Source of the DNA: Alphaproteobacteria bacterium
GTDB taxonomy: Bacteria > Pseudomonadota > Alphaproteobacteria > MPNO01 > UBA830
NCBI GenBank assembly: GCA_965243135.1
Contig: OZ251539.1
Coordinates: 1,984,001-2,048,000 of the forward strand
DNA length: 64,000 nt
Direction of reading: 5' to 3'
Below the pieces are notes generated by a model. The model was not told the DNA's origin, made no database searches, and saw nothing but the letters and a program-made list of their open reading frames with translations. The stretch's first letter is position 1, and the number at the start of each line of letters is the position of its first letter. The position numbers and the translations under genes were made by a program. Positions 9,697 through 33,945 of the stretch are shown here, one piece after another.

Positions 9697-11235
9697 TCAG
9701 GCGGCCTCGCAGTCGAACCCGACGACGTTGCGCTCCTCGCGGCTGAACTCCACCCCGATCAGGTGGACCGAACGTCCAAGATGGCGGTACTTGTCCGCGT
9801 AGCCCTTCTCCCGCAGTTGCGCGAGCGCGATCCCCTCCCGCCCGCGCTCCACCACCTTGAACTCGAACAGGTAGACGCGCCCGCCGGCGCGGATCGCCAT
9901 GTCGGCGCGCCCCCGGCTGCCGCTGTCCTCGGCCACCGGCTCGAGGCCCTCCATCAGGAAGCAGCTGTGGATGACGCTCGCGTAGTGGGCCTCGTACTTC
10001 GCGACCGGGCTGCTCGCGTACCACTGGTGCGGGATGGCGGCGAAGACGCCGCGGAACAGGGTTTCGAGACGCTTGAAGTCGTTCGCCGCCAGCAGTTCGC
10101 CCAGCCGCAGGCACGCCGTCTTCTTGCGCGCCTCGACCGGGAGCAGTTCTTCCAGCAAGGCCTCGCCCAGGCTCTGGCGCACCTCGAGGTTCGGGTAGTC
10201 CAGCCTGTAGCGCCCGTCCTCCTCGCCGGCGATGGTGAGGTAGCCGGTCTGGAACAGAAGCGCCTCGACCGAGACATTGTCCACGTCGAAGGCCGAGAGC
10301 AGGCTCTCGCTGCCGATCATGCCGTCCAGGTCGGGAGTGGGCAGGTCGCGGCGCGCCAGCGTCTCGACCAGGAAGGTCGGCGTGCCGCTATGGAACCAGT
10401 AGTTGCCGAACTTGCGTTTGTCGAACAGCAGCAGGAGGCCGAACGGATTGTAGAGCTTCTCCGGCCCGCACCAGTTGTAGCCGTTGTACCAGCGGCGGAT
10501 CTCGTCCCGGTCCAGGCCCTCGAGTTCCGGGGCGAAGACCGCGTCCAGTTCCGCGTCCGTGCAGCCGCAGATGGCGCCGTAGCGCTCGTCCAGCGTGATG
10601 TCGTTCAGGTTGTTCAGGCCCGAGAACAGGCCCGCCTTCGAGAATTTGCTCACCCCCGTCAGGAAAACGAAACGGAGATGCCTGTCGCAAGCCTTGATCA
10701 CCCCGTACAGGCTGCGCAGGAAGTCGCGGTTGGCCCGCGCAAGCTCCCGGTCGCCGAGCGCGTCCAGGATCGGCTTGTCGTATTCGTCCACCAGCACGAC
10801 CGTCCGCTGTCCGGTGCGCTCGTGCAGCGTCCTTATCAGGCGCCGGAAACGGACCGATGCCCCGGCGGGACCCGGTTCGAGACCGGCCTGCATCTCCGTC
10901 TCTTCCAACTGCGCTTCTACGGTTTCCCGAACCCCGTCCGGAGTGTCGAAATCGCCCACGCCGCTGAAATCCAGCCGCACGACCGGATAGCGCGCCGACC
11001 AGTCCCACTTGCCGTGCACGGCGAGGCCCCGGAACAGCTCCTCGCTCCCCTCGAACAACTCCTGCAGCGTGTCCACCAGCAGGGTCTTGCCGAACCGGCG
11101 CGGACGCGACAAGAAGTAGTAATCTCCTCCTTCGACGAGGCGGCGCAGATGGTCCGTCTTGTCGACGTAGTAGCAGTCTCTCGTCCGGATTTTCCGGAGG
11201 GAGGTCATGCCGATCGGAAGCATGCGTTTCGTCAT
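9697..11235 (-). CDS. AAA-ATPase-like + PD-(D/E)XK nuclease protein (PF09820+PF08011 type), copy A
   Basis: YYVDKT, Walker A RPRRFGKT, Walker B VLVDEYDKP, FLTGVSKF, C-terminal GRAD...YLFEFK; 512 aa, intact. Confidence 0.92.
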   Translation of the reverse strand: MTKRMLPIGMTSLRKIRTRDCYYVDKTDHLRRLVEGGDYYFLSRPRRFGKTLLVDTLQELFEGSEELFRGLAVHGKWDWSARYPVVRLDFSGVGDFDTPDGVRETVEAQLEETEMQAGLEPGPAGASVRFRRLIRTLHERTGQRTVVLVDEYDKPILDALGDRELARANRDFLRSLYGVIKACDRHLRFVFLTGVSKFSKAGLFSGLNNLNDITLDERYGAICGCTDAELDAVFAPELEGLDRDEIRRWYNGYNWCGPEKLYNPFGLLLLFDKRKFGNYWFHSGTPTFLVETLARRDLPTPDLDGMIGSESLLSAFDVDNVSVEALLFQTGYLTIAGEEDGRYRLDYPNLEVRQSLGEALLEELLPVEARKKTACLRLGELLAANDFKRLETLFRGVFAAIPHQWYASSPVAKYEAHYASVIHSCFLMEGLEPVAEDSGSRGRADMAIRAGGRVYLFEFKVVERGREGIALAQLREKGYADKYRHLGRSVHLIGVEFSREERNVVGFDCEAA

Positions 11236-11270
11236 TCGAAGAGGGTAGGCCGCCGCGCCGGAGCCGTCAA
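11236..11270 (-). promoter_or_regulatory. Putative leaderless sigma70 promoter of copy A
   Basis: TTGACG-N17-TACCCT-N6-ATG, no Shine-Dalgarno; same module upstream of the other copies. Confidence 0.6.
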
Positions 11271-11890
11271 GAAGTCGGCGGCGGCAGGCGCGTCCCCTGG
11301 CGCGGCAAGCAGCCGGCAGTTTCCGCAGCGGTACGGCGGGGAAAGCGCGGAGGCGAGCGAAGCTGTCGCTCCGCGGAAATCCTGCTCCGCCGAGGCGAGC
11401 GCGTTCGACGCGCTCAACGCGCGGCCTGGAGGCCGCGGGCGAACGCCGACGGAAGACGCCGCCGCCAAAGGCGACGCGCGTCGACAACGACGCCGGCTTC
11501 GCGAGCCTCGACGGCAAGGTCGACGCCCTCGCCGCGGAAACCGGGGCCGACGCAACGCGACGGCAAGCGCCCTCGCCAGGGAAAGCCGCGCGCCGACGAT
11601 TGTCGCGGCAGGCCTCGCACCTGCAGCTGGTTCGGCGCCGGAGGCGCGCGACGACATGCGCCGCAAGCGGCGAGACGCCTGAACGTCGGGCAGCGGTTCC
11701 GTCGAACGAGAGCGTCGTCCGGTCGAGCGAGCGGACTTCCGCCGCCGAAAACCATGGCTCGTTCGAAGCCGTCAACCGAAGCGGCTCGCGAAAGCGAAAC
11801 CGGAAACGGCGGCGGCGGGCGTTGGCCCCCGTTTTTGAACTCACCCGCCTGACCTCTCCGCAACATGAAAACGGTCGATCAGCCACCACG
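11236..11890. repeat. Left arm of a long inverted repeat (upstream of copy A); contains a decayed DUF1640-like ORF
   Basis: Co-linear reverse-complement homology to 26908-27565; AFDALNA...GFASLDGKVDALAAET remnant on + strand at ~11400-11640. Confidence 0.8.
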
Positions 11891-11914
11891 CGCGTTGCGC
11901 TTCAAACTTGAAGG

Positions 11915-12062
11915 GGCGATCCGGGGAAGGCGGCTTAGGACCGGCGATCTCGGTTGCTTCGACGAAGACGGGTTCCCGACCGTCACCGGGCGAACCCGGG
12001 ACGTCATCATCCAGGGCGGGGTCAACATTTCTCCGCTGGAGATCGACAACGCGCTGGTTTCT
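11915..12062 (+). pseudogene. Fragment of an AMP-binding (acyl-CoA synthetase-like) gene
   Basis: LRTGDLGCFDEDG..TVTGRTRDVIIQGGVNISPLEIDNAL signature; cut by an intron 5' end. Confidence 0.75.
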
Positions 12063-12173
12063 GTGCGCCGTGGAAAGGCGCTTTCTTCTGGTGGGTGCGA
12101 ATCCCACCCAACAACTGTCGTTCCGGTCAGCCAGGGCGGTTTACGGAGCGTAGGCTGAAGCACTCTGGACAAA
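12063..12173 (+). mobile_element. 5' fragment of the group II intron
   Basis: GTGCGCCGTGGAAAGGCGC..., near-identical to the 5' end of the 6194-8112 intron; ends at a MITE. Confidence 0.85.
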
Positions 12174-12614
12174 CGCTCATGATCGGCGCCTGCTCGCCCC
12201 GTAGCATGTAACTGGTGGTTTTGCTGGCGTCGCGCCGCTCGCCGACATAACCGTTCCGGGTTCGGGCGTCGCGGCGCGAAAACAGGGCTATACGGGGCTG
12301 CCCTCAGCGTCACGCTCCTCTCGAACGGCCAGTGCCGCCGCGAAAAAATCTTCGATTCGCGGAACGGTTTTGTGTGGCCGGCAGTTCGGGGTAGTTACAC
12401 AGCAAACGCTCATGATCGGCGCCTGTTCATCCCGTAGCATGTAACTTTGGGTATGGTTCTCCCGGCCTCGCGCCGCTCGCCGACATAACCGTTCCGCGTT
12501 CGGGCGTCGCGGCGTGAAGACAGGGCTATACTCAGCGTCACGCTCCTCTCGAACGGCGAGCGCCGCCGCGAAAAAATCTCGCGGAACGGTTTCGTGCGGC
12601 CGGCAGCTTGGGGT
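12174..12614 (+). mobile_element. Two tandem MITE-like repeats (copies 3 and 4)
   Basis: 12174-12403 complete (230 bp) and 12407-~12614 lacking the right end, joined by AAA. Confidence 0.85.
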
Positions 12615-13556
12615 TAGCCCGCAACCCGAGTCCAGCCCCCTGATTCGCTCTGATGCGGGTTAGGGTCCGCACCAAACGGAAGGCGGGCAGCAGGACACAA
12701 ATCGGGGGCGCGATTGCGCTTCGCTGTCGTCGGCACCTTGCTGGCGGCGCTCCCAACCGCTGTCCCGTGGCGCAATCTTCCGCGCGGCGGCGCCGGGCGC
12801 GGCCGGCGGTTCGCCCTCTGCGGGGCGGACGAAGCGCCGGGCGCGGGCGTAAAGCCGAGGTAGCGGGAAGGCGTTCTCGGCCCTCGCCGGCGTCGGGTTC
12901 GCGGAGGACGGACCTGACGTTCGGGAGTCGGGAACAGGGGCGGTTCGAGAGACTGCGGAGCGGCGAATGGACCGGCGCTGCGGCGGCGGCGGAGACGGCG
13001 CGCGTCAAACCCTCGTTCCGGGCCGCGTTCGCCGCCCGCCGGCTGACCGTTCCCGGTTTCCGAACTCCCCAGCGCCGGCGAAGCCGGTCCGGACGTCGCG
13101 CCCGCGCGTCCCCAGGAGTTCGGGGCCTGCCGGGCGAGGCCCGCCGGCGCGGGGACTGCCTGCCGACGACCCACGCTCTGCCCCCCGCCTACGCTTTCCG
13201 CCCGGCCCTTCCGGCCAACCGCAACGGATTCCGGGCCCCGGCTACGTCCCCGCCGTCTTGGTCGCCCTCGACGAGGCCGGGCGCTTCTGCGACAGGCTCG
13301 ACGAACGCCTCGACCGCGCGGCATGGACGGAACTCGCCGGACGGCCCATGTTCGCCGGCAAGAGCCGGGCGCCCGCGCAAGCCCCCGGGGAGGAACCGCC
13401 GCGGAAACTGCCGGCTGCTTCTCGCGCGACGCAGACAGGCCTGCCGCCCAGGGCGAATTCAAGAATGGCCATTGCCAAGCGCTGCCCGCGAGGAGGAGGC
13501 GGCAGCGGCCTTTCGCGAAGGCGCCGCCTGCGTCCGAACGGGAACGGCGCCCGGCT

Positions 13557-15098
13557 TCAGACGGTCTCGAACTCGAACCCGACGATGTTGCGCTCCTCCC
13601 GGCCGAACTCCACCCCGATCAGGTGGACCGGCACGCCCGGACGCCGGTACTTGTCCGCGTAGCCGCGCTCCCGAATCTGCGCCAGCGCCCGCCCCTTTCC
13701 GTCCGCGACCTTGAACTCGAACAGGTAGACGTTGCCGTCGTACAGGACCGTAAGGTCCGAGCGGCCGCGCGCCGAGCTCTCCTCGGCGCGGACGTCCATC
13801 CCCGCCGCCACGAAGTGCGAGTAGAACACGCTCGCGTAGTGCGCTTCGTAGCCCGCCATGCCCGTGTTCGCGTACCACTCGTTCGGAATGCTCGCCAGGA
13901 ACGCCCGGAACAGATTTTCGAGGCCCGCGAAGTCGTTCGCCCGCATCAGGCGGCGCAACTCCCGGCTCTCCGCCGCGACCGTGACCTCCGGCGCCATCGC
14001 CTTCAGCAGAAGCGCGTTCAGGCTGCGCTTCACCTCCTGGTTCGGGTAGTCCAGCCGGTAGAGGCGCGTGTCCTCGTCCCGCTCCTCGTCGGCGATGGTC
14101 AGGTAGCCGGTCTGGAACAGCAACGCCTCGACGGGAATGCGATCGACGTCGATGGCCGACAGCAGGTCGTCGTCCGTGACCAGATCCTCCAGGGCCGGCG
14201 GCGCGAACCGGCGCCGCGACAGAAGGTCGGCGAGGAAGGTCGGCGTGCCGGTCCGGAACCAGTGCGCCTCGAACTGGCGGCACCGGAAAAGCAGCAGGAC
14301 ATCGTACGGGTTGTAGAGTTTCTCCGCGCCTCGCCAGTTGTAGCCGTTGTACCAGCGGCGGACCTCGTCCCGGTCCAGGCCGTCGAGTTCCGGGGCGAAG
14401 ACCGCGTCCAGGTCCGCGTCCGTGTAGCCGCAGATGGACGAGAACTCCGGCTCCAGCGTGATGTCGATCAGGTTGTTCAGGCCCGAGAACAGGCCCGCCT
14501 GCGAGAACTTGCTCACGCCGGTAAGGAAGGCGAACCGGATATGCGCGTCGCAGTCCTTGACGACGCTGTAGAAGCCGCGCAGGAAGTCGCGGTTGGCCAG
14601 CGCCCGTTCCCGGTCGCCGAGCGCGTCCAGAATCGGCTTGTCGTATTCGTCGACCAGAACGACCGTCCGCTGCCCTGCGCGCTCGTGCAGCGTCCTTATC
14701 AGGCGCCGGAAACGGACCGCCGCCCCGGCGGGGCCCGGTTCGAGGCCGGCCAGCCGTTCCGTTTCCTCCAACTGGTCTTCCACGTTTTCCCGAACGAGGT
14801 CCGGGGAGTCGAAATTGCCCCCGCCGAAGCTGATCCGCACGACAGGATGACGTATCGACCAGTCCCACTTGCCGTGCACGGCGAGGCCCCGGAACAGCTC
14901 CTCGCTTCCTTCGAACAACTCCTGCAGCGTGTCCACAAGCAGGGTCTTGCCGAACCGGCGCGGACGCGACAGAAAATAATATTGACCGCCCTCGACAAGG
15001 CGGCGCACATGGTCCGTCTTGTCGACGTAGTAGCAGTCCATCTCCCCCCGGATTTTCCGGAGGGAGGTCAAGCCGATCGGGAGCATGCGTTTCGCCAT
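13557..15098 (-). CDS. AAA-ATPase-like + PD-(D/E)XK nuclease protein, copy B (second C-terminal type)
   Basis: Same Walker motifs; divergent C-terminal half (AEESSARGRSDLTV...YLFEFK); 513 aa, intact. Confidence 0.92.
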   Translation of the reverse strand: MAKRMLPIGLTSLRKIRGEMDCYYVDKTDHVRRLVEGGQYYFLSRPRRFGKTLLVDTLQELFEGSEELFRGLAVHGKWDWSIRHPVVRISFGGGNFDSPDLVRENVEDQLEETERLAGLEPGPAGAAVRFRRLIRTLHERAGQRTVVLVDEYDKPILDALGDRERALANRDFLRGFYSVVKDCDAHIRFAFLTGVSKFSQAGLFSGLNNLIDITLEPEFSSICGYTDADLDAVFAPELDGLDRDEVRRWYNGYNWRGAEKLYNPYDVLLLFRCRQFEAHWFRTGTPTFLADLLSRRRFAPPALEDLVTDDDLLSAIDVDRIPVEALLFQTGYLTIADEERDEDTRLYRLDYPNQEVKRSLNALLLKAMAPEVTVAAESRELRRLMRANDFAGLENLFRAFLASIPNEWYANTGMAGYEAHYASVFYSHFVAAGMDVRAEESSARGRSDLTVLYDGNVYLFEFKVADGKGRALAQIRERGYADKYRRPGVPVHLIGVEFGREERNIVGFEFETV

Positions 15099-15370
15099 TC
15101 GAAGAGGGTAGGCCGCCGCGCCGGAGCCGTCAAGGAGCCGGCGGTCGCAAGCAGGGCGAGGAACGGGGCGGTCATGGCCAAGCGCTGCCCGCGAGGCGGC
15201 AGCGGTGCGGGAAGCGGCAGCGTCGGGAGGTCAAGTGTAAGCGGTAACCGGCAGTTTCAGGTGCAAAGCCGCGCCTGAAAGGAAGGCGTTTCCGTTCCAC
15301 GCCTGGTCAGGCCGGAAAATGCCGCGTGCTTTCAAGCGGTTCCGCAGCACCATGTCGTGGCCCGTCAGCG
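15099..15370. repeat. Upstream/promoter block duplicated before copies B and C
   Basis: Near-identical to 18275-18550; includes TTGACG-N17-TACCCT-N6-ATG on the minus strand. Confidence 0.85.
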
Positions 15371-15708
15371 TTCGCGTAAGCGTTCGCTACCCGGAGGACG
15401 AAAAAATTTCGTCCCGGGACCGGACACGGGATCCTTCGCCCCTTTTGCTGCGACCGACGGACGAGGGGCTTTGCCGCCGGCAACGGCCCGGCGGGACGAG
15501 GCGCGCCCGGAAGCGGAAACGTCGCGCGGAGGCAGGCCGGCAAGCGACGTTACGGAGAACGCAGCAGGCGCGCCGAGGCGGCGCGCAACGAGCCGCCTGA
15601 AGTCGGCCTCTTCGGCGAACGAGCGGGCCGCCCGCGGCGAAGCCGAGGGAGCGCATCGACGAACGCGGCAGTCGCTCGACTTCGATGTCTCGCCGACGGG
15701 GAAGGGCG

Positions 15709-16030: not shown

Positions 16031-16178
16031 AGCGTCCTTTCCGGAGACCGGAGACCCGCAGCGCCGGTCGTCAAGGGAGACGTTTGCGCGAGCCGTTTGC
16101 GCTGCGCCACTTTTTGTCGGCCTGCCGCCCGGACGACGCCCCGCAAGGGCCTCGCGGGTGCTCGGTCTTCAGAACAAA

Positions 16179-16413
16179 CTCTCATGATCGGCGCCTGCTC
16201 ACCCCGTAGCATGTAACTTTGGGTATGGTCCTCCCGGCCTCACGCCGCTATCATGTGCCGACATAACCGTTCCGCGTTCGGGCGTCGCGGCGTGAAGACA
16301 GGGCTATACGGGGCAGCCCTCAGCGTCGCGCTCCTCTCGAACGGCAAACGCCGCCGCGAAAAAATCTCGCGGAACGGTTTTGCGTGGCCTGCGGCTCGGG
16401 GTAGTTACACAAC
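16179..16413 (+). mobile_element. MITE-like repeat copy 5
   Basis: CTCTCATGATCGGCGCC...GTAGTTACACAAC flanked by AAA on both sides. Confidence 0.85.
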
Positions 16414-16749
16414 AAAGGCGAGTGTTGCCGCACCGCAAACCCGGTGCAAGCCGGGCCGTGGCCTAGCAGGCGGTCAGGGGCGGCGCCCGGCCGGCCGTGG
16501 GGTGCTGTGAAAATCGCGGTCCCGGCGCGAAGAATTCGCAGTTTCCCGTACCCGAGGAAAAAATTCCGCACCCCGGAAAGCCGTCCGCATTTCAAGGCGT
16601 TGCGGACAGCGCACGCGGCTCACCCGTTGACAGGGCGAATTCAAGAATGGCGCGTTCATCGCCAAGCGCTGCCCGCGAAGAGAAGGCGGCAGCGGCCTTT
16701 CGCGAAGGCGCCGCCTGCCGAAAGGTACGAACGGGAACGGCTCCCGGCT

Positions 16750-18274
16750 TCAGACGGTCTCGAACCCGACGATGTTGCGCTCCTCCCGGCCGAACTCGAT
16801 CAGGTGGACCGGCACGCCCGGACGCCGGTGCTTGTCCGCGTAGCCGCGCTCCCGTATCTGCGCCAGCGCCCGGCCTTCCGGCCTCCCGTCCACGACCTTG
16901 AACTCGAACAGGTAGACGCCGCCGCCGTACAGGACCGCCAGATCCGAGCGGCCGCGCGCCGTGCTCTCCTCCGCGCGGACGTCCATCCCCGCCGCCACGA
17001 AGTGCGAGTAGAGCACGCTCGCGTAGTGCGCCCCGGCCAGGCCCGTGTTCGCGTACCACTCGTTCGGGATGCTCGCCAGCAACGCCCGGAACTGCCGCTC
17101 GAGGCCCGCGAAGTCGTTCGCGCGCATCAGGCGGCGCAGCTCCTGGCTCTCCGCCGCGACCGCGATGTCCGGCGCCATCGTCTGCAGCAGGAGCTCGTTC
17201 AGGCTCCGCCTCACCTCCTGGTTCGGGTAGTCCAGCCGGTAGAGGAGCGCGTCGTCGTCCCGCTTCTCGTCGACGATGGTCAGATAACCGGTCTGGAACA
17301 AAAGCGTCTCGACGGGAATGCGGTCGACGTCGAGGGCCGACAACAGCGCGGCGTTCGCGACCGCGCCCTCCAGGGCCGGCGCCGAGACCCGGCGCCGCGC
17401 CAGAAGGTCGGCGAGGAAGGTCGGCGTGCCGGTCTGGAACCAGTGCTCATCGAACTCGCGCGTTTCGAAGAGAAGGAGGATGTCGAACGGGTTGTAGACC
17501 CTCTCCGGCCCGCGCCAGTTGTAGCCGTTGTACCAGCGGCGGACCTTCTCCCGGTCCAGGCCCTCGAGCTCCGGGGCGAAGACGGCGTCCAGCTCGTCGT
17601 CCGTGTAGCCGCAGATGGCGCCGAAACGCGGGTCGAGGGTGATGTCGCGCAGGTTGTTCAGGCCCGAGAACAGGCCCGCATGCGAGAACTTGCTCACGCC
17701 GGTAAGGAAGGCGAACCGGACATGCGCGTCGCAGTCCTTGACGACGCTGTAGAAGCCGCGCAGGAAGTCGCGGTTGGCCAGCGCCAGTTCCCGGTCGCCG
17801 AGCGCGGACCGGCTTGTCGTATTCGTCCACCAGAACGACCGTCCGCTGCCCTGCGCGCTCGTGCAGCGTCCTTATCAGGCGCCGGAAACGGACCGCCGCC
17901 CCGGCGGGGCCCGGTTCGAGGCCGGCCAGCCGCTCCGTTTCCTCCAACTGGTCTTCCACGTTTTCCCGAATGTGGTCCGGGGAGTCGAAATTGCCCCCGC
18001 CGAAGCTGATCCGCACGACAGGATGACGTATCGACCAGTCCCACTTGCCGTGCACGGCGAGGCCCCGGAACAGCTCCTCGCTTCCCTCGAACAGCTTCTG
18101 CAGCGTGTCCACCAGCAGGGTCTTGCCGAACCGGCGCGGACGCGACAGAAAATAATATTGACCACCCTCGACAAGGCGGCGCACATGGTCCGTCTTGTCG
18201 ACGTAGTAGCAGTCCATCTCCCCCCGGATTTTCCGGAGGGAGGTCAAGCCGATCGGCAGCATGCGTTTCGTCAT
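16750..18274 (-). pseudogene. AAA-ATPase-like + PD-(D/E)XK nuclease protein, copy C (frameshift near 17805)
   Basis: ORFs 17447-18274 and 16750-17697 together give a full-length paralog of copy B type. Confidence 0.88.
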
Positions 18275-18540
18275 TCGAAGAGGGTAGGCCGCCGCGCCGG
18301 AGCCGTCAAGGAGCCGGCGGTCGCAAGCAGGGCGAGGAACGGGGCGGTCATGGCCAAGCGCTGCCCGCGAGGCGGCAGCGGTGCGGGAAGCGGCAGCGTC
18401 GAGAGGTCAAGTGTAAGCGGTAACCGGCAGTTTCAGGTGCAAAGCCGCGCCTGAAAGGAAGGCGTTTCCGTTTCACGCCTGGTCAGGCCGGAAAATGCCG
18501 CGTGCTTTCAAGCAGTTCCGCAGCACCATGTCGTGGTCCG

Positions 18541-19241: not shown

Positions 19242-19284
19242 CGCCCTTCCCCGCCGGCGAGACCTCGAAGTCGAGCGACTGTCG

Positions 19285-19515
19285 CGGTCGCGCGGGGCGC
19301 AAGCCCCCGCGCCGGGCGCTGCACGGCTCGCGCCACGAGTGGGCGCCGGCAGTGAGCGTCACTATGGACGACGACGCCAGCGAACCGGCCTTCTTCGTCG
19401 CCGAGGAAGGCGCCATGTCGACTTTCCAGGCGTTTCGCGAGTTGGTCGGCGTGCGCGGGCTGTTCCGCTCGCTCTACCGCGGCAGCCACTGCTTCCGCAC
19501 GCCCGAGGCCGGCTC
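19285..19515 (+). mobile_element. Internal fragment of the IS1202-like transposase
   Basis: Homologous to ~3340-3600 (MDDDASE..FFVAEEG, SLYRGSH). Confidence 0.75.
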
Positions 19516-19638
19516 AGCTTCGGCAGGGGCAATTTCGTCGTCCCGGACGGGGTAACCGTGGAACGGCAGCTGGCGACGGCGGAGAGACACGCCGGCCTCG
19601 AACCCGTCGAGGCCCGTTTCGGGGAACTGATCAGGGGC
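19512..19638 (+). pseudogene. Isolated fragment of the AAA-nuclease variable block
   Basis: LSFGRGNFVVPDGVTVERQLATAERHAGLEP.EARFGELIRG aligns to the region between Walker A and B. Confidence 0.65.
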
Positions 19639-19862
19639 TTCCATGCGTGCCGGCGCCCCGGCGGAAACGGTCGGTGCTTTCGTCGTTCTCTTCCCGACCG
19701 TCGGCGGCTTTCCCCTGTCCTCGGGAGGGTCAATTTCCGCATTGCTCGTTTCGAGGCCTGGTTCACTGCTCGTTCCGGCCCGCATGTTCGCTGAGCGGCC
19801 CTCGCCGCCCGTCTGCCAGAGTGCTTCAGCCTACGCCTCCGTAAACCGCTCTGGCTGACCGG
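19639..19862 (-). mobile_element. Domain I fragment of a sibling group II intron
   Basis: Homologous to ~7810-8050 but with a different EBS1-loop sequence. Confidence 0.8.
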
Positions 19863-20107
19863 AAAATCCCGCTAATGCCACTTCCGTCTCGACTGTTTCA
19901 CGAACGAAGCGGAGCTGCTTGTCGCAAACCTTGACCGTCCCGTACGGGCAGCGCAGGAAGTCTCGGTTGGCCAGCGCCAGTTCCCGGTCGCCGACCGCGT
20001 CCGGAATTGGCTTGTTCGTCCACCGGAACGACGACCTGTTGCCCGGTACGCTCGTGCGGCGTCAGGTGCCGGAAACGGATCGCCGCCGCGCTCGGTGCCG
20101 CCGCCCG

Positions 20108-22046: not shown

Positions 22047-22297
22047 GTAAGCGTTCGGTCGTGGGGTGGCGACGTTGAGGCCTGCCTCCAGGCAGGGGCT
22101 TCAACCAGACGTCCTTGACCGGGAGGGCGCGTTCGTTTCGGGTACTGCCGCGGCCTACGCCGCCCCTCTGGTTGGCACCCGGCAACAGGTTTCTCGCGAA
22201 GTCCCGGAGAGTAAGCGTTCGGTTGCGAAGCGGGCTGTCGAGCCAGGCGAATCGCCCAGGCCTGGACACTCTTCTTTTGTTCTTGTATACGGCTGCC

Positions 22298-23944: not shown

Positions 23945-24813
23945 GCGGCAGCCCCCGCCGCTACTGCGGGCGCGACTTCTCCGAGGACGAGGTCGACATG
24001 ATCCGCGGCCTGATCGCGAGGGGCGGCCTCCACCGCCGGGCGCTGTCGCGGGAGGTCTGCCGCCGCCTCGACTGGCGCAAGCCCGACGGCGGCCTAAAGG
24101 ATATGAGCGCGCGCGTCGCCATGTTGCGCATGCATCGCGACGGCGTGATCGTCTTGCCGCCGCCAAGGCGCGCGCCGGTCGTCCGCCGTCCGCTCGTGCC
24201 CGGTCCCGCGACCGACAGGCCCCCGTTCCCGACCCCCGAGCGTCTCGCCGATATCCAACCCGTCGCCGTTGAGCCCGTCCGGAACGCGGGCGAAGGCCGC
24301 CTCTGGAACGAGTTCGTCGCTCGCTACCACTATCTCGGCTATTCGACGCTGCCCGGCGCGCAGATGCGATACTTCGTTCGGGCCGCCGGAGGCGAACCCC
24401 TCGCCGTCCTCGGCTTCGGCGCCGCGGCCTGGAAGATCGCGCCGCGGGACAAGCTTGTCGGGTGGGATCCCGAGACCCGCCGCCGCAACCTGCCTCTCGT
24501 GGTCAACAATGCAAGGTTCCTGATCTTGCCGTGGGTCCGGATCAAAAACCTCGCGTCCTGCATCCTTGCCATGGTTGAATGTCGCCTGCCCGACGATTGG
24601 GAAGGCCGCTACGCGTTGCGCCCGGCCCTGATGGAGACCTTCTGCGAGAGCACGCGCTTCGAAGGAACCTGCTACCGGGCCGCCAACTGGACCAAGGTCG
24701 GCAAAACGCAGGGCCGCGGCAAGCTCGATACCCGGAAAGAACGCGCTCTCCCGGTCAAGGACATCTGGCTGAAACCCCTGCGCCGGGACTGGAGGCGGCT
24801 CCTCAATGAATAG
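23941..24813 (+). CDS. DUF4338-domain protein (family that includes Druantia DruA homologues)
   Basis: LWNEFVARYHYLGY, RDKLVGW, VVNNARFLILPWVRIKNLAS and GTCYRAANW; GTG start overlaps the tnpC stop. Confidence 0.88.
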   Translation: MSGSPRRYCGRDFSEDEVDMIRGLIARGGLHRRALSREVCRRLDWRKPDGGLKDMSARVAMLRMHRDGVIVLPPPRRAPVVRRPLVPGPATDRPPFPTPERLADIQPVAVEPVRNAGEGRLWNEFVARYHYLGYSTLPGAQMRYFVRAAGGEPLAVLGFGAAAWKIAPRDKLVGWDPETRRRNLPLVVNNARFLILPWVRIKNLASCILAMVECRLPDDWEGRYALRPALMETFCESTRFEGTCYRAANWTKVGKTQGRGKLDTRKERALPVKDIWLKPLRRDWRRLLNE

Positions 24814-24848
24814 GCCATCACCCCACGACCGAACGCTTACCCGTATTC

Positions 24849-25636: not shown

Positions 25637-25875
25637 TCATTCGCCGCCCAGGAAGTCCACAGCTTTCGTCGCGAAGCTTGCCCCGTTCCTGACCTCGCAT
25701 TCCCAAATTACGAGAACATCCCATTTCGCGCAACTGCGCCTGGTGTTCGGCGTCTCGAACGGTGTTCCTCTCCAGTTTCGGCAGCCAGTAATCCCGGTTC
25801 GACCCGGGCTGCCGGGAGATCCTGCAACCGGGGTGCTGACGCCGGAAACGGCCGTGCACGAAGATTGCCTTCCTC
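25637..25875 (-). pseudogene. vsr: Very-short-patch-repair endonuclease, 5'-truncated remnant
   Basis: AIFVHG..QHPGC...NRDYWLPKLERN..RD and WDVLVIWECE motifs; cut by an IS end at 25876. Confidence 0.8.
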
Positions 25876-26229: not shown

Positions 26230-26905
26230 GTAAGCGTTCGGTCGAGGGGTGATGGCCTATTTGTTGAGGAGCCGCCTCCAGTCCCGGCACAGGGGCTTCA
26301 GCATCCTTGACCGGGAGAGCGCGTTCGTTCCGCACGTCGAGCTTGCCGCGCCCTTGAGTGCGGCCAGCCCTAGTCCAGTTGGCGGCCTGGTAGCAGGTTC
26401 CTTCGAAGCGCATGCTCTCGCAAAAGGTCTCCGCCGGGCGTAACGCATAGCGGCCTTCCCAATCGTCGGGCAGGCGACACCAAGGCAAGGGGATGCGAGG
26501 TTTTTGATTCGGACCCACGGCAGGGCCCTTGCATTGTTGACCACGAGAGGCAGGTTGCGGCGGCGGGTCTCGGGATCCCACGAGCTTGTCCCGCGGCGCG
26601 GTCTTCCAGGCTGCGGCGCCGAAGCCGAGGACAGCGAGGGGTTCGCCGCCAGCGGCCCGGACGAAGTGCTGTGCGCCGGGCAGCGTCGAGTAGCCAAGAT
26701 AGTGGTAGCGGGCGACGAACTCGTTCCAGAGGCGGCCTTCGCCTGCGTTCCGGACAGGTTCCACTGCGACGGGTTGGACATCGGCAAGGCGCTCGGGGAC
26801 CGGGAGCAGGGGCCGGTCGGTCGCGGGACCGGGCACGAGCGGACAGCGGACGACCGGCGCACGCCTTGGCGGCGGCAGGACGGCCGTCGCGGTGCATGCG
26901 CAACA
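26230..26905 (-). mobile_element. Partial IS66/DUF4338 element (right end plus degenerate DUF4338 gene)
   Basis: GTAAGCGTTCGGTCGAGGGG at 26230; homologous to ~24120-24840 with frameshifts. Confidence 0.85.
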
Positions 26906-26907
26906 TG

Positions 26908-27565
26908 CGTGACGGCTGACCGACCGTTTGCATGTTGCGGAGAGGTCAGGCGGGTGAGTGCAAAACCGGAGGCCGACGCCTGCCGTCACCGTTTCCGGTT
27001 TCGCTTTCCCGAGCCGCTTCGGTTGATGGCTTCGAACGAGCCCATGGTTTTCGGCGGCGGAAGTCCGCTCGCTCGACCGGAGGACGCTCTCGTTCGACGG
27101 AACCGTTGCCTGGCGTTCCGGCGTTTCGCCGCTTGCGGCGCTTGTCGTCGCGCGCCTCCGGCGGCGAACCAACGCAGGGGCGGCGAGGCCCGCCGCGACG
27201 ATCGTCGTCGGAGGCGCGCGGCTTGGCGAGGGCGCTTGCCGTCGTGTTGCGCCGGCCCTGGTTTCCGCGGCGAGGGCGTCGACCTTGCCGTCGAGGCTCG
27301 CGAAGCCGGCGTCGTTGTCGATACGCGTCGCCTTTGGCGACGGCGCCTTCCGTCGGCGTTCGCTTCCGCCCGCGGCCTCCTGGCCGCGCGTCGAACGCGC
27401 TCGCCTCGGCGGGGCAGGATTTCCGCGGAGCGACAGGTTCGCTCGCCTCCGCGCTTTTCCCCGCCGTGCCGCCGCGGAAACTGCCGGCTGCTTCTCGCGC
27501 GACGCAGACAGGCCTGCCGCCGCCGACTTCTTGACGGCTCCGGCATGGCGGCCTACCCTCTTCGA
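26908..27565. repeat. Right arm of the long inverted repeat (upstream of copy D)
   Basis: Reverse-complement homologue of 11236-11890; ends in TTGACG(27531)-N17-TACCCT(27554)-N6-ATG. Confidence 0.8.
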
Positions 27566-29101
27566 ATGACGAAACGCATGCTTCCGATCGGCTTTTCCTC
27601 CCTCCGGGAGATCCGGGGGATGAACTGCTACTACGTCGACAAGACGGACCATGTGCGCCGCCTCGTCGAAGGGGGCAAGTACTATTTCCTGTCGCGTCCG
27701 CGCCGGTTCGGCAAGACCCTCCTGGTGGACACGCTGCAGAAGCTGTTCGAGGGAAGCGAGGAACTGTTCCGGGGCCTCGCCGTGCACGACAAGTGGGACT
27801 GGTCGGCGCGCCATCCGGTCGTGCGGATCAGCTTCGGCGGGGGCAATTTCGACTCCCCGGACCTCGTTCGGGAAAACGTGGAAGACCAGTTGGAGGAAAC
27901 TGAGCGGCTGGCCGGCCTCGAACCGGGTCCCGCCGGGGCGGCGGTCCGTTTCCGGCGCCTGATAAGGGCGCTGCACGAGCGCGCCGGGCAGCGGGCGGTC
28001 GTTCTGGTGGACGAATACGACAAGCCGATCCTGGACGCGCTCGGCGACCGGGAACTGGCGCTGGCCAACCGCGGCTTCCTGCGCGGCTTCTACGCGATGA
28101 TCAAGGAGTGCGACGAGCAGCTCCGTTTCGTTTTCCTGACGGGGGTGAGCAAGTTCTCGAAGTCGGGTCTGTTCTCGGGCCTGAACAACCTGAACGACAT
28201 CACGCTGGACGAGCGTTACGGCACTATCTGCGGCTGCACGGACGCGGAACTGGACGCGGTCTTCGCCCCGGAACTCGAGGGCCTGGACCGGGACGAAATC
28301 CGCCGCTGGTACAACGGCTACAACTGGCTCGGACCGGAGAGGGTCTACAACCCGTTCGGCCTCCTGCTGCTGTTCGACAAACGCAAGCTCGGCAACTACT
28401 GGTTCGAGAGCGGCACGCCGACCTTCCTGATCGAGACGCTGGCGCGCCGCAACCTGCCCACTCCCCGCCTGGACGGCATGATCGGCAGCGAGAGCCTGCT
28501 CTCGACCTTCGACGTGGACAGGATGTCGGTCCAGGCGCTTCTGTTCCAGACCGGCTACCTCACCATCGCCGGCGAGGAGGACGGGCGCTACCGGCTGGAC
28601 TACCCGAACCTCGAGGTGCGCCAGAGCCTGGGCGAAGCCCTGCTGGAAGAACTGCTCCCGGCCGAGGCCCGCGAGGAGACGGAGAACCTGCGGCTGGGCG
28701 AATTGCTGGCGGCGAACGACTTCAAGCGCATCGAGACCCTGTTCCGCGGCATTTTCGCCGCCATCCCGCACCAGTGGTACATGAACAGCCCCGTCGCGAA
28801 GTACGAGGCCCACTACGCGAGCGTCATCCACAGCTGCTTCCTGATGGAGGGCCTCGAACCGGTCGCCGAGGACAGCGGCAGCCGGGGGCGCGCCGACATG
28901 GCGATCCGCTCCGGCGGGCGCGTCTACCTGTTCGAGTTCAAGGTGGTGGAGCGCGGGCGGGAGGGGACCGCGCTCGCGCAGCTGCGGGAGAAGGGCTACG
29001 CGGACAAGTACCGCCGTCTCGGGCGTTCGGTCCACCTGATCGGGGTGGAGTTCAGCCGCGAGGAGCGCAACGTCGTCGGCTTCGACTGCGAGGCCGCCTG
29101 A
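27566..29101 (+). CDS. AAA-ATPase-like + PD-(D/E)XK nuclease protein, copy D
   Basis: MTKRMLPIG start, Walker A/B, YLFEFK; 511 aa, intact. Confidence 0.92.
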   Translation: MTKRMLPIGFSSLREIRGMNCYYVDKTDHVRRLVEGGKYYFLSRPRRFGKTLLVDTLQKLFEGSEELFRGLAVHDKWDWSARHPVVRISFGGGNFDSPDLVRENVEDQLEETERLAGLEPGPAGAAVRFRRLIRALHERAGQRAVVLVDEYDKPILDALGDRELALANRGFLRGFYAMIKECDEQLRFVFLTGVSKFSKSGLFSGLNNLNDITLDERYGTICGCTDAELDAVFAPELEGLDRDEIRRWYNGYNWLGPERVYNPFGLLLLFDKRKLGNYWFESGTPTFLIETLARRNLPTPRLDGMIGSESLLSTFDVDRMSVQALLFQTGYLTIAGEEDGRYRLDYPNLEVRQSLGEALLEELLPAEAREETENLRLGELLAANDFKRIETLFRGIFAAIPHQWYMNSPVAKYEAHYASVIHSCFLMEGLEPVAEDSGSRGRADMAIRSGGRVYLFEFKVVERGREGTALAQLREKGYADKYRRLGRSVHLIGVEFSREERNVVGFDCEAA

Positions 29102-29209
29102 ACGGCTTCCCGTCAGCCGCCTCCGCGAAAGAACGCCGCCCGCAGCGCGGGACAGGCCTGCCGCCGCCGACTTCTTGACGGCTCCGGCGCGGCGGCCTAC
29201 CCTCTTCGA
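29102..29209 (+). promoter_or_regulatory. Conserved 108-bp inter-copy spacer with putative leaderless promoter
   Basis: Repeated at 30743-30840, 32313-32420 and (truncated) 33946-34020; TTGACG 29175, TACCCT 29198, ATG 29210. Confidence 0.65.
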
Positions 29210-30742
29210 ATGACCAAACGCATGCTGCCGATCGGCTTGACCTCCCTCCAGAAAATCCGGGGGGAGATGGACTGCTACTACGTCGACAAGACGGACCATG
29301 TCCGCCGCCTTGTCGAGGGTGGTCAATATTATTTTCTGTCGCGTCCGCGCCGGTTCGGCAAGACCCTGCTGGTGGACACGCTGCAGAAGCTGTTCGAGGG
29401 AAGCGAGGAACTGTTCCGGGGCCTCGCCGTGCACGGCAAGTGGGACTGGTCAACGCGCCATCCTGTCGTGCGGATCAGCTTCGGCGGGGGCGATTTCGGC
29501 GACCCGGACGGAGTTCGGGAAGAAACGGAATCGCAACTGAAGGCGGCGGAGAGGCTAGCCGGCATCGAGCCGGGCAGCGCCAGAGTTTCGGTCCGCTTCC
29601 GGGAACTGATCGCTGCCCTGCACGAACGCACCGGGCAGCGGACAGTGGTTCTGGTGGACGAATACGACAAGCCGATCCTGGACGCGCTCGGCGACCGGGA
29701 GCTGGCGCGGGCCAACCGCGACTTCCTGCGCAGCCTGTACGGGGTTATCAAGGACTGCGACGAGCATCTCCGTTTCGTTTTCCTGACGGGAGTGAGCAAG
29801 TTGTCGGGTCTGTTCTCGGGCCTGAACAACCTGCGCGACATCACGCTGGCTCCGGAGTTCTCGGACATCTGCGGCTGCACGGACGCGGAACTGGACGCGG
29901 TCTTCGCCCCGGAACTGGAGGGCCTGGACCGGGACGAAATCCGCCGCTGGTACAACGGCTACAACTGGTGCGGGCCGGAGAAGCTCTACAATCCGTTCGG
30001 CCTCCTGCTGCTGTTCGCCGAGCGCAGGTTCAGCAACTACTGGTTCGAGAGCGGTACGCCGACCTTCCTGATCGAGACGCTGGCGCGCCGCAACCTGCCC
30101 ACTCCCCGCCTGGACGGCATGATCGGCAGCGAGAGCCTGCTCTCGACCTTCGACGTGGACAGGATGTCGGTCCAGGCGCTTCTGTTCCAGACCGGCTACC
30201 TCACCATCGCCGGCGAGGAGGACGGGCGCTACCGGCTGGGCTACCCGAACCTCGAGGTGCGCCAGAGCCTGGGCGAGGCCCTGCTGGAAGAACTGCTCCC
30301 GGACGAGGCCCGCGAGGAGACGGAGAACCTGCGGCTGGGCGAATTGCTGGAGGCGAACGATTTCAAGCGTCTCGAAACCCTGTTCCGCGGCATTTTCGCC
30401 GCCATCCCGCACCAGTGGTACATGAACAGCCCCGTCGCGAAGTACGAGGCCCACTACGCGAGCGTCATCCACAGCTGCTTCCTGATGGAGGGCCTCGAGC
30501 CGGTGGCCGAGGACAGCGGCAGCCGGGGGCGCGCCGACATGGCGATCCGCTCCGGCGGGCGCGTCTACCTGTTCGAGTTCAAGGTGGTGGAGCGCGGGCG
30601 GGAGGGGACCGCGCTCGCGCAACTGCGGGACAAGGGCTACGCGGACAAGTACCGCCGTCTCGGGCGTTCGGTCCACCTGATCGGGGTGGAGTTCAGCCGC
30701 GAAGAGCGCAACGTCGTCGGGTTCGACTGCGAGGCCGCCTGA
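29210..30742 (+). CDS. AAA-ATPase-like + PD-(D/E)XK nuclease protein, copy E
   Basis: 510 aa, intact; same motifs as the other copies. Confidence 0.92.
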   Translation: MTKRMLPIGLTSLQKIRGEMDCYYVDKTDHVRRLVEGGQYYFLSRPRRFGKTLLVDTLQKLFEGSEELFRGLAVHGKWDWSTRHPVVRISFGGGDFGDPDGVREETESQLKAAERLAGIEPGSARVSVRFRELIAALHERTGQRTVVLVDEYDKPILDALGDRELARANRDFLRSLYGVIKDCDEHLRFVFLTGVSKLSGLFSGLNNLRDITLAPEFSDICGCTDAELDAVFAPELEGLDRDEIRRWYNGYNWCGPEKLYNPFGLLLLFAERRFSNYWFESGTPTFLIETLARRNLPTPRLDGMIGSESLLSTFDVDRMSVQALLFQTGYLTIAGEEDGRYRLGYPNLEVRQSLGEALLEELLPDEAREETENLRLGELLEANDFKRLETLFRGIFAAIPHQWYMNSPVAKYEAHYASVIHSCFLMEGLEPVAEDSGSRGRADMAIRSGGRVYLFEFKVVERGREGTALAQLRDKGYADKYRRLGRSVHLIGVEFSREERNVVGFDCEAA

Positions 30743-30839
30743 ACGGCTTCCCGTCAGCCGCCTCCGCGAAAGAACGCCGCCCGCAGCGCGGGACAGGCCT
30801 GCCGCCGCCGACTTCTTGACGGGCGCGGCGGCCTACCCT

Positions 30840-32312
30840 CTGACGAAATGCATGCTCGGCTTGACCTCCCTCCGGAAAATCCGGACGAGGGACTGCTACT
30901 ACGTCGACAAGACGGACCATGTGCGCCGCCTCGTCGAAGAGGGCGATTACTATTTCCTGTCGCGTCCGCGCCGGTTCGGCAAGACCCTTCTGGTGGACAC
31001 GCTGCAGGAGCTGTTCGAGGGAAGCGAGGAGCTGTTCCGGGGCCTCGCCGTGCACGGCAGGTGGGACTGGTCGACGCGCCGCCCGGTCGTGCGGATCAGC
31101 TTCGGCGGGGGCAATTTCGACACTCCGGACTTCGTTCGGAAAGATGTGGAGGACCAGCTGGAGGAGACGGAGCGGCTGGCGGGCCTCGAACCGGGGCCTG
31201 CCGAGGCGTCGATCCGTTTCCGGCGCCTGCGCTGCACGAGCGCCCCGGGCGGCGGGCGGTCGTTCTGGTGGACGAACAAGCCGGTCGCGCTCGGCGACCG
31301 GGAACTGGCGCTGGCCAACCGCGACTTCCTGCGCGGCTTCTACGCGATGATCAAGGACAGCGACAAGCATCTCCGTTTCGTTTTCCTGACGGGGGTGAGC
31401 AAGTTGGCTGGCCTGTTTTCGGGCCTGAACAACCTGCGTCACGCTGGCTCCGGAGTTCTCGGACATCTGCGGCTGCACGGACGCGGAACTGGACGCGGTC
31501 TTCGCCCCGGAACTCAAGGGCCTGGACCGGGACGAAATCCGCCGCTGGTACAACGGCTACAACTGGCGCGGGCCGGAGAAGCTCTACAATCCGTTCGGCC
31601 TCCTGCTGCTGTTCGCCGAGCGCAGGTTCGGCAACTACTGGTTCGAGAGCGGCACGCCGACCTTCCTGGTCGAGACGCTGGCGCGCCGCGACCTGCCCAC
31701 TCCCCGCCTGGACGGCATGACCGGCAGCGAGAGCCTGCTCTCGACCTTCGACGTGGACAGGGTCGAGGCGCTTCTGTTCCAGACCGGCTACCTCACCATC
31801 GCCGGCGAGGAGGACGGGCGCTACCGGCTGGGCTATCCGAACCTCGAGGTGCGCCGGAGCCTGGGCGAGGCCCTGCTGGAAGAACTGCTCCCGGCCGAGG
31901 CCCGCGAGGAGACGGAGAACCTGCGGCTGGGCGAACTGCTGGAGGCGAACGACTTCAAGCGTCTCGAAACCCTGTTCCGCGGCATTTTCGCCCCGCATTT
32001 TCGCCCCGCACCAGATGGTACATGAACAGCCCGGTGTACGAGGCCCACTACGCGAGCGTCGTCCACAGCTGCTTGGAGGGCGTCGAGCCGGTGGCCGAGG
32101 ACAGCGGCAGCCGGGGGCGCGCGGCGATCCGCGCCGGCGGGCGCGTCTACCTGTTCGAGTTCAAGGTGGTGGAGCGCGGGCGGGAGGGGACCGCGCTCGC
32201 GCAGCTGCGGGAGAAGGGCTACGCGGACAAGTACCGCCGTCTCGGGCGTTCGGTCCACCTGGTGGAGTTCAGCCGCGAGGAGCGCAACGTCGTCGGCTGC
32301 GAGGCCGCCTGA
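30840..32312 (+). pseudogene. AAA-ATPase-like + PD-(D/E)XK nuclease protein, copy F (many small deletions)
   Basis: Full-length homology split over frames; start context eroded. Confidence 0.88.
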
Positions 32313-32420
32313 ACGGCTTCCCGTCAGCCGCCTCCGCGAAGGAACGCCGCCCGCAGCGCGGGACAGGCCTGCCGCCGCCGACTTCTTGACGGTTCCGGCG
32401 CGGCGGCCTAATCTCTTCCG

Positions 32421-33945
32421 ATGGCGAAACGCATGCTTCCGATCGGCTTGACCTCCCTCCGGAAAATCCGGACGAAAGACTGCTACTACGTCGACAAGAC
32501 GGACCATGTGCGCCGCCTCGTCGAAGAGGGCGATTACTATTTCCTGTCGCGTCCGCGCCGGTTCGGCAAGACCCTGCTGGTGGACACGCTGCAGGAGTTG
32601 TTCGAAGGAAGCGAGGAACTGTTCCGGGGCCTCGCCGTGCACGGCAGGTGGGACTGGTCGATACGTCATCCTGTCGTGCGGCTGGATTTCGGCGGGGGCG
32701 ATTTCGGCGACCCGGACGGAGTTCGGGAAGAAACGGAATCGCAACTGAAGGCGGCGGAGAGGCGGGCCGGCATCGAGCCGGGCAGCGCCAGAGTTTCGGT
32801 CCGCTTCCGGGAACTGATCGCGGACCTGCACGAACGCACCGGGCAGCGGGCGGTGGTTCTGGTGGACGAATACGACAAGCCGATCCTGGACGCGCTCGGC
32901 GACCGGGAGCTGGCGCGGGCCAACCGCGACTTCCTGCGCAGCCTGTACGGGGTGATCAAGGCCTGCGACAGGCATCTCCGTTTCGTTTTCCTGACGGGGG
33001 TGAGCAAGTTATCAGGCCTGTTCTCGGGCCTGAACAACCTGAACGACATCACGCTGGACGAGCGCTACGGCGACATCTGCGGTTACACCGAAGCGGAGCT
33101 GGACGCGGTCTTCGCCCCGGAGATCGAGGGCCTGGACCGGGACGAAATCCGCCGCTGGTACAACGGCTACAACTGGCTCGGACCGGAGAAGGTCTACAAC
33201 CCGTTCGGCCTCCTGCTGCTGTTCGACAAACGCAAGTTCGGCAACTACTGGTTCCATAGCGGCACGCCGACCTTCCTGGTCGAGACGCTGGCGCGCCGCG
33301 ACCTGCCCACTCCCGACCTGGACGGCATGATCGGCAGCGAGAGCCTGCTCTCGACCTTCGACGTGGACAATATCTCGGTCGAGGCGCTTCTGTTCCAGAC
33401 CGGCTACCTCACCATCGCCGGCGAGGAGGACGGGCGCTACAAGCTGGACTACCCGAACCTCGAGGTGCGCCGGAGCCTGGGCGAGGCCCTGCTGGGAGAA
33501 CTGCTCCCGGTCGAGGCGCGCAAGAAGACGGCGCGCCTGCGGCTGGGCGAACTGCTGGAAGCGAACGACTTCGAGCGCCTCGGAACCCTGTTCCGCGGCG
33601 TCTTCGCCGCCATCCCGCACCAATGGTACGCGACCAGCCCGGTCGCGAAGTACGAGGCCCACTACGCGAGCGTCCAGCTGCTTCCTGATGGAGGGCTTCG
33701 AGCCGGTGGCCGAGGACAGCGGCAGCCGGGGGCGCGCCGACATGGCGATCCGCGCCGGCGGGCGCGTCTACCTGTTCGAGTTCAAGGTGGTGGAGCGCGG
33801 GCGGGAGGGGACCGCGCTCGCGCAGTTGCGGGAGAAGGGCTGCGCGGACAAGTACCGCCACCTCGGGCGTTCGGTCCACCTGATCGGGGTGGAGTTCAGC
33901 CGCGAGGAGCGCAACGTCGTCGGGTTCGATTGCGAAACCGCCTGA
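32421..33945 (+). pseudogene. AAA-ATPase-like + PD-(D/E)XK nuclease protein, copy G (one frameshift near 33675)
   Basis: ORF from 32421 plus 33688-33945 give a full-length paralog; promoter variant TTGACG-N17-TAATCT. Confidence 0.9.

Follow-up and report, generated by a model that had tools for sequence, protein, structure and literature searches.

The stretch of DNA analysed here, 64,000 nucleotides (nt) of contig OZ251539.1 (hereafter the window), carries seven full-length copies, A to G, of a gene of the DUF1703 type, in which a PF09820 ATPase is followed by a PF08011 nuclease, and these copies are mosaics of one another. We read them, with a probability of about 0.62, as members of a birth-and-death family of ATPase-nucleases, similar in fold class to STAND (signal transduction ATPases with numerous domains) and ORC (origin recognition complex) proteins, that has been shuffled by ordinary gene conversion. 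Such a family would be built by tandem and dispersed duplication with decay of some copies, accompanied by frequent ectopic gene conversion or unequal crossing-over through the general homologous recombination of the cell. Crossovers would take place in stretches identical even at synonymous sites, the tracts exchanged, from tens to a few hundred nt long, would bring old, diverged alleles of variable blocks into new combinations, and the ATPase module (to about residue 280) would be exchanged across three types of C-terminal half. On this view the mosaic would be an incidental product of recombination that selection may have preserved, and not something made by a dedicated machine. A role in genetic conflict seems probable, as defence against mobile DNA or as selfish maintenance; the former is plausible.

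A blastn search of the window with copy E recovered seven full-length copies and three short fragments (Table 1). The copies lie where an earlier, sequence-only reading of this DNA had placed seven paralogs, and the six block patterns by which that reading had grouped them incompatibly all reappear, with the same groupings, in a frame-corrected alignment. GEMDC/GGQYY is common to B, C and E; in the block at residues 94-116, B, C and D share one form and E and G another; DERYG in A, D and G stands against PEFS in B, E and F; FDKRK in A, D and G against FAERRF in E and F; FHSG/PDLDG/ARKKTA in A and G against FESG/PRLDG/AREETEN in D, E and F; and a shortened VSKL form is found in E, F and G. Nucleotide identities separate the copies into two clades, BC and ADEFG, being approximately 78% between them and 90-93% within ADEFG. 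This division is backed by 143 of 295 gap-free informative sites, while the remaining 152 back many other splits and are clustered in runs. Most sites backing BC|ADEFG (132/143) are located at gene nt 833 or later, and the 5' part groups the copies otherwise, in runs that include BCE|ADFG at nt 55-126, AG|BCDEF at nt 265-270, EG|ABCDF with 23 sites in nt 293-441, and BEF|ACDG at nt 655-663.

Formal tests agree with this picture. With our own implementation of the pairwise homoplasy index (PHI) test, none of 5000 permutations of the nucleotide alignment reached the value observed for all seven copies (z -10.6), and the same was true of the subsets ADEFG, ABDE and ADEG. In a GENECONV-like test, which looks for runs of polymorphic sites that agree between two copies, 8 of the 21 pairs reached the lowest attainable p (1/2001), with tracts of approximately 30-190 nt; among them are tracts that cross the clade boundary, between B and D (nt 265-340) and between C and E (nt 102-192). 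The conflicting splits, together with the significance of both tests, bear out two earlier proposals, that no single duplication tree can explain the blocks and that segments have been exchanged between copies by gene conversion. The recombination testing which had been suggested as a check is strongly positive by PHI, and the mosaic observation is not only right but stronger than it was first stated.

The seven genes seem to be only a small part of a very large family in this genome. Among the best 120 database clusters listed in a protein search with E, 50, at 65-100% identity to E, have a longest contig of 6,103,318 bp, like the cluster of E itself, and on that ground appear to be paralogs encoded in the same chromosome. 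Aligned with A, B and D, these give 53 sequences of 59-100% protein identity (median 74%), and at this scale the "2-3 discrete alleles" previously ascribed to each block prove to be an effect of sampling: the 94-116 block takes 34 distinct strings among the 53 sequences, approximately 5-6 of them common forms and many of them minor. Three distinct types of C-terminal half exist, and the block alleles are freely combined with them. In an amino-acid PHI test of the 48 full-length sequences, 0 of 2000 permutations reached the observed value, and the association between informative columns decays with distance, the mean Cramer V being 0.61 for columns 1-5 residues apart and 0.23 for those more than 320 apart.

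These data also bear on the possibility that the mosaics are artefacts of assembly, namely consensus chimeras of collapsed or mis-polished repeats, which we consider very improbable. Identical block strings are found in proteins of other assemblies, which argues that the alleles are real and old and not consensus chimeras, and the decay of association with distance across the 48 sequences is smooth. The frameshifted tail of copy G recurs in a different paralog, P0099, which carries other blocks, and this speaks against random read error. Moreover, reading frames are open in four copies and in every housekeeping gene at 42-64 kb, and the same kind of recombination signal is seen in two other genomes and in Cardinium, as described below. 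What could favour a polishing artefact is an unusual spectrum of gaps in the repeats of this region. When pairs of one paralog with another are left out, the 78 gaps between window repeats comprise 16 of 5 nt, 31 of 6 nt and none of 4 nt, so that 47/78 are 5-6 nt long, against 52/1005 in a comparison set of 238 repeat pairs from 79 foreign loci. The foreign gaps show the usual decay with length (1 nt, 494 gaps; 2 nt, 152; 3 nt, 171; 4 nt, 37; 5 nt, 23; 6 nt, 29). Each of the 24 events that were polarised is a deletion, with 6 nt lost in sixteen cases, 5 nt in seven and 7 nt in one. In these 24, no microhomology beyond chance and no enrichment of GATC or TCGA was detected; the deleted segments are slightly richer in AT than the background, and GAT, a motif picked post hoc, occurs in 9 of the 24 against 2.3 expected. 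The excess could reflect either a mutational process specific to this lineage or a polishing artefact specific to repeats. Much more speculatively, nucleases of this kind might have cut their own genome in a staggered fashion and left the 5-6-nt deletions as scars.

Frameshifting deletions are carried by copies C, F and G. Copy F has 11 private deletions of 5-11 nt, another of 6 nt that coincides in the alignment with one in C, and two insertions, of 7 nt and 1 nt, a total of 14 indels against just 28 private substitutions. Since C, F and G are broken, the intact copies are A, B, D and E only. D, E, F and G form a head-to-tail array with a period of approximately 1.6 kb. Common to all seven copies are the gene, ~58 nt upstream and ~45-105 nt downstream, the flanks being short and different between the clades; the upstream segment is kept in 7/7 copies and the start codon in 6/7. 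This segment may serve as a promoter, and a strict sigma-70 scan over 27300-34200 returned no match. Beyond the common unit, A and D share a further ~670 nt of upstream sequence (11236-11900 and 26898-27565; 90.8% identity over 2266 nt), while B and C share ~276 nt upstream and ~110 nt downstream; these additional flanks indicate that the copies were duplicated as larger segments.

In a Pfam scan of copies A, B, D and E, all four matched PF09820 (167-201 bits, cut-off 26.1) and PF08011 (57-65 bits, cut-off 25.5), the ATPase preceding the nuclease, and no other domain was found. Across 70 aligned sequences the Walker A (R45-K51) and Walker B (D150-D153) motifs are invariant, as are E434, D443, E456 and Q471 in motifs I-IV of the nuclease, with K458 conserved in at least 90%. 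Within the window, six of the seven copies have Walker A and B, the Walker B motif of F having been deleted, and the EFK motif is visible in all seven. The unusual Walker A RPRRFGK[ST], the Walker B DEYD and a four-domain architecture were described for the family by Knizewski et al. 2007 (PMC1913061), who also tied the N-terminus of DUF1703 proteins to PF01637 and to AAA+ structures. An AlphaFold2 model of E built from the 70-sequence alignment (predicted local distance difference test, pLDDT, 86.6; predicted template modelling score, pTM, 0.86) shows an ATPase, a helical middle part and a C-terminal nuclease. In the product of each gene, as modelled, a STAND/ORC-like AAA+ ATPase occupies the N-terminus, helices the middle and a PD-(D/E)XK nuclease the C-terminus, and the protein is probably an ATP-dependent, oligomerising nuclease.

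A Foldseek comparison of this model with the PDB gave as best matches Dark (8y6q), Apaf-1 (3sfz), Avs3 (8dgc), PAB2304 (2qen), Cdc6/Orc1 and MalT; its C-terminal domain was best matched by nuclease domains from Wolbachia CinB and CidB. Apaf-1, Dark and Avs3 are matched with probabilities of 0.95-1.0 and template modelling (TM) scores of 0.2-0.3, and similar scores are obtained with Cdc6/Orc1 and with clamp-loader AAA+ proteins; the PF01637 ATPase PAB2304 has the best TM-score relative to the target, 0.49. Because these scores are low, the term STAND/ORC-like names a class of ATPase fold and not a close relative. The ATPase fold class of the STAND NTPases Avs, Apaf-1 and CED-4 is among the best matches, and the features in common are a fused PD-(D/E)XK nuclease and a gene that stands alone. 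The present proteins differ from Avs in their reversed domain order, with the nuclease C-terminal, in their length of ~510 residues and TM-scores of ~0.3, in having no tetratricopeptide repeat (TPR) or other repeat-type sensor domain by Pfam or in the model, and in matching no PADLOC model. PAB2304 and Cdc6/Orc1, for their part, do not have the PD-(D/E)XK domain of the DUF1703 family, and a role at replication origins is not suggested here. Searches of NCBIfam with the paralogs gave no match, and a search of the ESM Atlas returned the same family only.

The most variable block, residues 94-134, sits in the model between strand 86-90 and the Walker B strand, and comprises a loop, a helix (101-116), a second loop and the start of helix 126-141. 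In initiator-type AAA+ proteins a helical insert serves as a substrate- or neighbour-contact element, and by analogy we suspect a similar use of the insert here. Pairwise ratios of nonsynonymous to synonymous substitution (dN/dS) were calculated for whole genes (0.36-0.62) and by region. In the variable block (codons 91-135), pairs with different major alleles (D-E, A-E, A-G, D-G and B-E) have a synonymous divergence (dS) of 0.54-0.71 and dN/dS of 0.42-0.63, and pairs less different there (A-D and B-A) have dS of 0.33-0.38 and dN/dS of 0.32-0.37; outside the block dS is 0.04-0.53 and mostly below 0.35. The raised dS implies that the alleles of this block are old and not fast-changing. In the examination of dN/dS by block advocated in the sequence-only reading, values in the variable block are thus all below 1. 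Codons 206-415 show dN/dS of 0.6-1.0 in many pairs, which fits relaxed constraint, or a mixture of constraint with positive selection that pairwise averages cannot separate.

Such values invite the view that the family is an adaptive, immune-like repertoire of NTPase-coupled nuclease sensors, in which selection keeps and re-assorts the blocks to widen recognition, as in plant nucleotide-binding leucine-rich repeat (NLR) proteins. We judge this unlikely. It draws on the dN/dS of the middle region and on the old alleles in residues 94-134 that persist despite exchange, as well as on alleles common to several assemblies, on conserved nuclease motifs in a STAND/ORC-like protein with Avs3 and Apaf-1 among its best fold matches, and on a gene that stands alone like many single-gene defence systems. 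Against it, dN/dS is below 1 in 69 of the 70 region-by-pair comparisons and 1.01 in the other (B-D, codons 206-300), three of seven copies are broken, no repeat-type sensor domain and no PADLOC match were found, and the neighbours that could be annotated in the 79 foreign loci belong for the most part to metabolism and not to defence; in the accessible portions of the literature found under the names of the family, there is no biochemical or defence experiment on DUF1703-type proteins. The likeness to plant NLR clusters is one of arrangement, in that both would consist of tandem and dispersed NTPase-type paralogs made mosaic by gene conversion or unequal crossing-over. The difference is that plant NLRs have a demonstrated immune function and leucine-rich repeat sensors under positive selection. 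More speculative, and in our opinion rather improbable, is the stronger proposal that at least 50 stand-alone ATPase-nuclease sensors of STAND-like type are maintained in this genome as a repertoire shuffled by recombination, the bacterial equivalent of plant NLR clusters. The helical insert of the ATPase domain (residues 94-134) would then determine, along with the middle domain, which target or partner is recognised, and new specificities would arise by gene conversion between conserved stretches.

Several observations weigh against our preferred reading of a birth-and-death family with ordinary gene conversion. The old, high-dS alleles of the variable block could mean that selection resists homogenisation there, which would favour the adaptive alternative, and pairwise dN/dS leaves room for positive selection at a few sites. 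The TM-scores of the fold matches on the query are low (0.2-0.36), no solved structure in the PDB matches by sequence, and the paralogs match no model in PADLOC.

The distribution of the family is broad, with at least 626 confirmed matches in species-representative genomes of many phyla; among the matches listed, relatives are 48-63% identical. On plasmids it was found in 66 of 72,556 records, and in a phage collection only on 28 uncultured contigs. A neighbourhood sample of 79 loci from other genomes contained no conserved partner gene, the next commonest neighbour family, short-chain dehydrogenase, being present in 9/79. More than one separate match was found in 12 of these loci, and three more single matches of ~3.2 kb are read as two adjoining copies each. 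Another multi-copy ATPase family, with AAA_14 and DUF4143 domains, has a gene near the DUF1703 gene in 8/79 loci (L017 and seven others).

Recombination among paralogs is likewise not peculiar to this genome. PHI was applied to two other genomes with four copies (two further genomes had three copies only), and in both a Latescibacterota metagenome-assembled genome (MAG) with four tandem copies and a gammaproteobacterial MAG with four copies at three loci, 0 of 2000 permutations reached the observed value. For Cardinium hertigii cCpun, Siozios et al. 2019 (PMC6387759) reported 25 paralogs that have evolved reticulately and among which RDP4 and PHI detected recombination. Taken together, the signal in the two MAGs and in Cardinium makes a mosaic structure ordinary for the family. 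The Cardinium genes resemble the present ones in combining PF09820 with PF08011, in their many paralogs, in their intragenic recombination and in being of unknown function. They differ in amino acid identity, which is 39% on average, compared with a median of 74% among our 53 sequences, and in number, with 25 paralogs against at least 50 clusters; some copies here form head-to-tail arrays, unlike those in Cardinium, and the host here, also unlike Cardinium, is high in GC with a housekeeping gene order that appears to be of alphaproteobacterial type. The Cardinium authors predict that their paralogs are secreted. Expansion and inter-paralog recombination are already published for this family, and the window extends the published pattern, with no new mechanism. 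The family is widespread and often multi-copy; a genome with at least 50 recombining copies offers a natural data set on which parts of the protein tolerate or need variation, and its many natural chimeras are suited to testing defence, selfish maintenance or action on the host.

A candidate link to a known defence system was also considered. A table in a review (PMC10952713) assigns PF09820 to RdrA of RADAR. The RdrA ring (8hr8) ranks 25 in the fold search, with a probability of 0.69 and a TM-score of 0.20. Membership in RADAR was rejected, as there is no match to the PADLOC model of RdrA at E up to 0.01, and Pfam scans nearby revealed no adenosine deaminase (RdrB) partner.

The number and setting of the copies raise a different possibility, that the gene or its fragments spread like a mobile element in a selfish repeat family, mosaics and broken copies being the wreckage of recombination. 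The clusters apparently present in one genome number at least 50, fragments of the gene are scattered in the window, and the copies lie in a repeat-rich setting of ~42 kb with IS110 and IS66 remnants and pieces of group II introns. The distribution is patchy across phyla and extends to plasmids, and a 2025 paper (PMC12039267) proposes DUF1703 fragments in Cardinium as MITE (miniature inverted-repeat transposable element) candidates. Several features argue to the contrary and lead us to regard the notion as rather doubtful. The sequence shared by the copies is confined to the gene and its short flanks, no terminal inverted repeats were found at the ends of unit E, copies of 59-100% identity are far from near-identical, head-to-tail arrays fit unequal crossing-over better than transposition, and the ATPase and nuclease motifs are under purifying selection. 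An insertion sequence or MITE proper was rejected on the same absence of terminal inverted repeats and on shared flanks that are short and differ between clades. An inverted relic of the ATPase gene forms part of a 338-nt repeat (925-1262 versus 19860-20197), whose two copies, at 99.1% identity, differ far less than those of other repeats in the window and so point to a recent duplication.

A dedicated generator of diversity, whether a diversity-generating retroelement, a shufflon or other invertase system, or silent cassettes of the pilE/pilS type, was rejected as well, in view of the absence of reverse transcriptase or recombinase domains and of the retention of the upstream segment by all copies and of the start codon by six. 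The earlier proposal of a "combinatorial diversification system" accordingly finds no support: neither a reverse transcriptase open reading frame (ORF) nor an invertase nor the architecture of an expression site was seen in Pfam scans of the region, copies C, F and G are broken, and the pattern has already been published. The first ~42 kb of the window, in which the copies lie, is repeat-rich and largely non-coding or decayed. In addition to the copies, it contains an IS110 fragment, an IS66 ORF, a DruA-domain ORF with a degraded copy, an FRG ORF, a TPR gene, a fragment of an M48 peptidase gene, two fragments of group II intron RNA and many short repeats. From 42 kb on, the window is occupied by open housekeeping genes for purine/urate catabolism, ABC transport, RNase J, CoaX, BirA and complex I antiporter-like subunits. 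No tRNA gene was found in the window.

The sequence-only reading had supported a defence role by FRG, Vsr and DUF4338 neighbours. Of these, FRG and DUF4338 are present but make weak witnesses, the FRG ORF being 138 residues long and the DruA-domain ORF overlapping the end of the IS66 ORF with no DruB-E beside it; Vsr was absent from three Pfam scans, covering 102, 20 and 24 ORFs or frames, from which small or heavily decayed remnants could escape. Instead of marking a Druantia system, the DruA-domain gene may belong to the IS66 element or travel with it as cargo, and Pfam scans also detected no helicase such as the large DruE.

Table 1. Positions of the gene copies, their shared segments and relics, and other features of the window.
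Feature	Position	Strand	Remarks
Copy A	9697-11235	-	intact, 512 residues, ADEFG clade; Walker A RPRRFGKT, Walker B DEYD and EFK motif present
Copy B	13557-15098	-	intact, 513 residues, BC clade; 5' part common to D and F
Copy C	16750-18274	-	broken by one 5-nt and three 6-nt deletions; sites adjoin 17807, 17036, 16798 and 16766
Copy D	27566-29101	+	intact, 511 residues; unit 1 of head-to-tail array D-E-F-G
Copy E	29210-30742	+	intact, 510 residues; query for searches and basis of structure model
Copy F	30840-32312	+	broken; start codon and Walker B region lost
Copy G	32421-33945	+	broken by one 5-nt deletion adjoining 33674; nuclease part out of frame, ORF 33688-33945
Conserved upstream segment (~58 nt, all seven copies), copy E	29152-29209	+	alignment columns 175-232
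Upstream segment, other plus-strand copies	27508-27565, 30793-30839, 32363-32420	+	alignment
Upstream segment, minus-strand copies	11236-11293, 15099-15156, 18275-18332	-	alignment
Most variable block (residues 94-134), copy E	29488-29610	+	alignment, model
Variable block equivalents, A, B, C	A 10835-10957, B 14698-14820, C 17874-17996	-	alignment
Variable block equivalents, D, F, G	D 27841-27963, F 31109-31228, G 32696-32818	+	alignment
Relic gene fragment 1 (about gene nt 380-570)	968-1155	-	within 338-nt repeat (copy 19860-20197)
Relic gene fragment 2 (same gene part)	19903-20090	-	blastn with E
Relic short piece 3	19510-19604	+	blastn with E
IS66-family transposase ORF	22115-23941	+	NF033517, 265 bits; between the two groups of copies
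DruA-domain (DUF4338) ORF, 309 residues	23884-24810	+	Pfam 148 bits; PADLOC DruA only E 2.5e-4; overlaps IS66 ORF end by 58 nt
DruA-domain ORF, degraded copy 2	26230-26907	-	repeat comparison
Short FRG-domain ORF, 138 residues	24818-25234	-	partial-length match to PADLOC candidate PDC-S15 models of 254-535 positions
Repeats showing 5-6-nt gaps (window 1-42000)	e.g. 24120-24840 vs 26230-26907; 3814-4227 vs 34020-34417		also copies C, F and G

Other repeated sequences accompany the copies in this region. The group II intron fragments correspond to RNA domains D1-D4 and lie on the minus strand at 7944-8086 and 19768-19907; one scores 76.3 bits and the other, which is degenerate, 29.1 bits, and no intron-encoded protein was recognised for them. 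Sequence adjoining these fragments recurs at 12061-12615, 16174-16419, 19638-19857, 38836-39050, 2817-2987 and 6112-6193. The TPR-repeat gene (20108-21900, minus strand), located just downstream of a relic of the ATPase gene, has many internal repeats of 66-76% identity; as listed, its ORF extends upstream to 23281, probably as a read-through of high-GC sequence. Internal repeats are also found in coiled-coil ORFs (CCDC90-like, 49 bits) at 35546-36205 and 38160-38663, both on the minus strand, with partial copies at 34408-34892 and 38133-38728.

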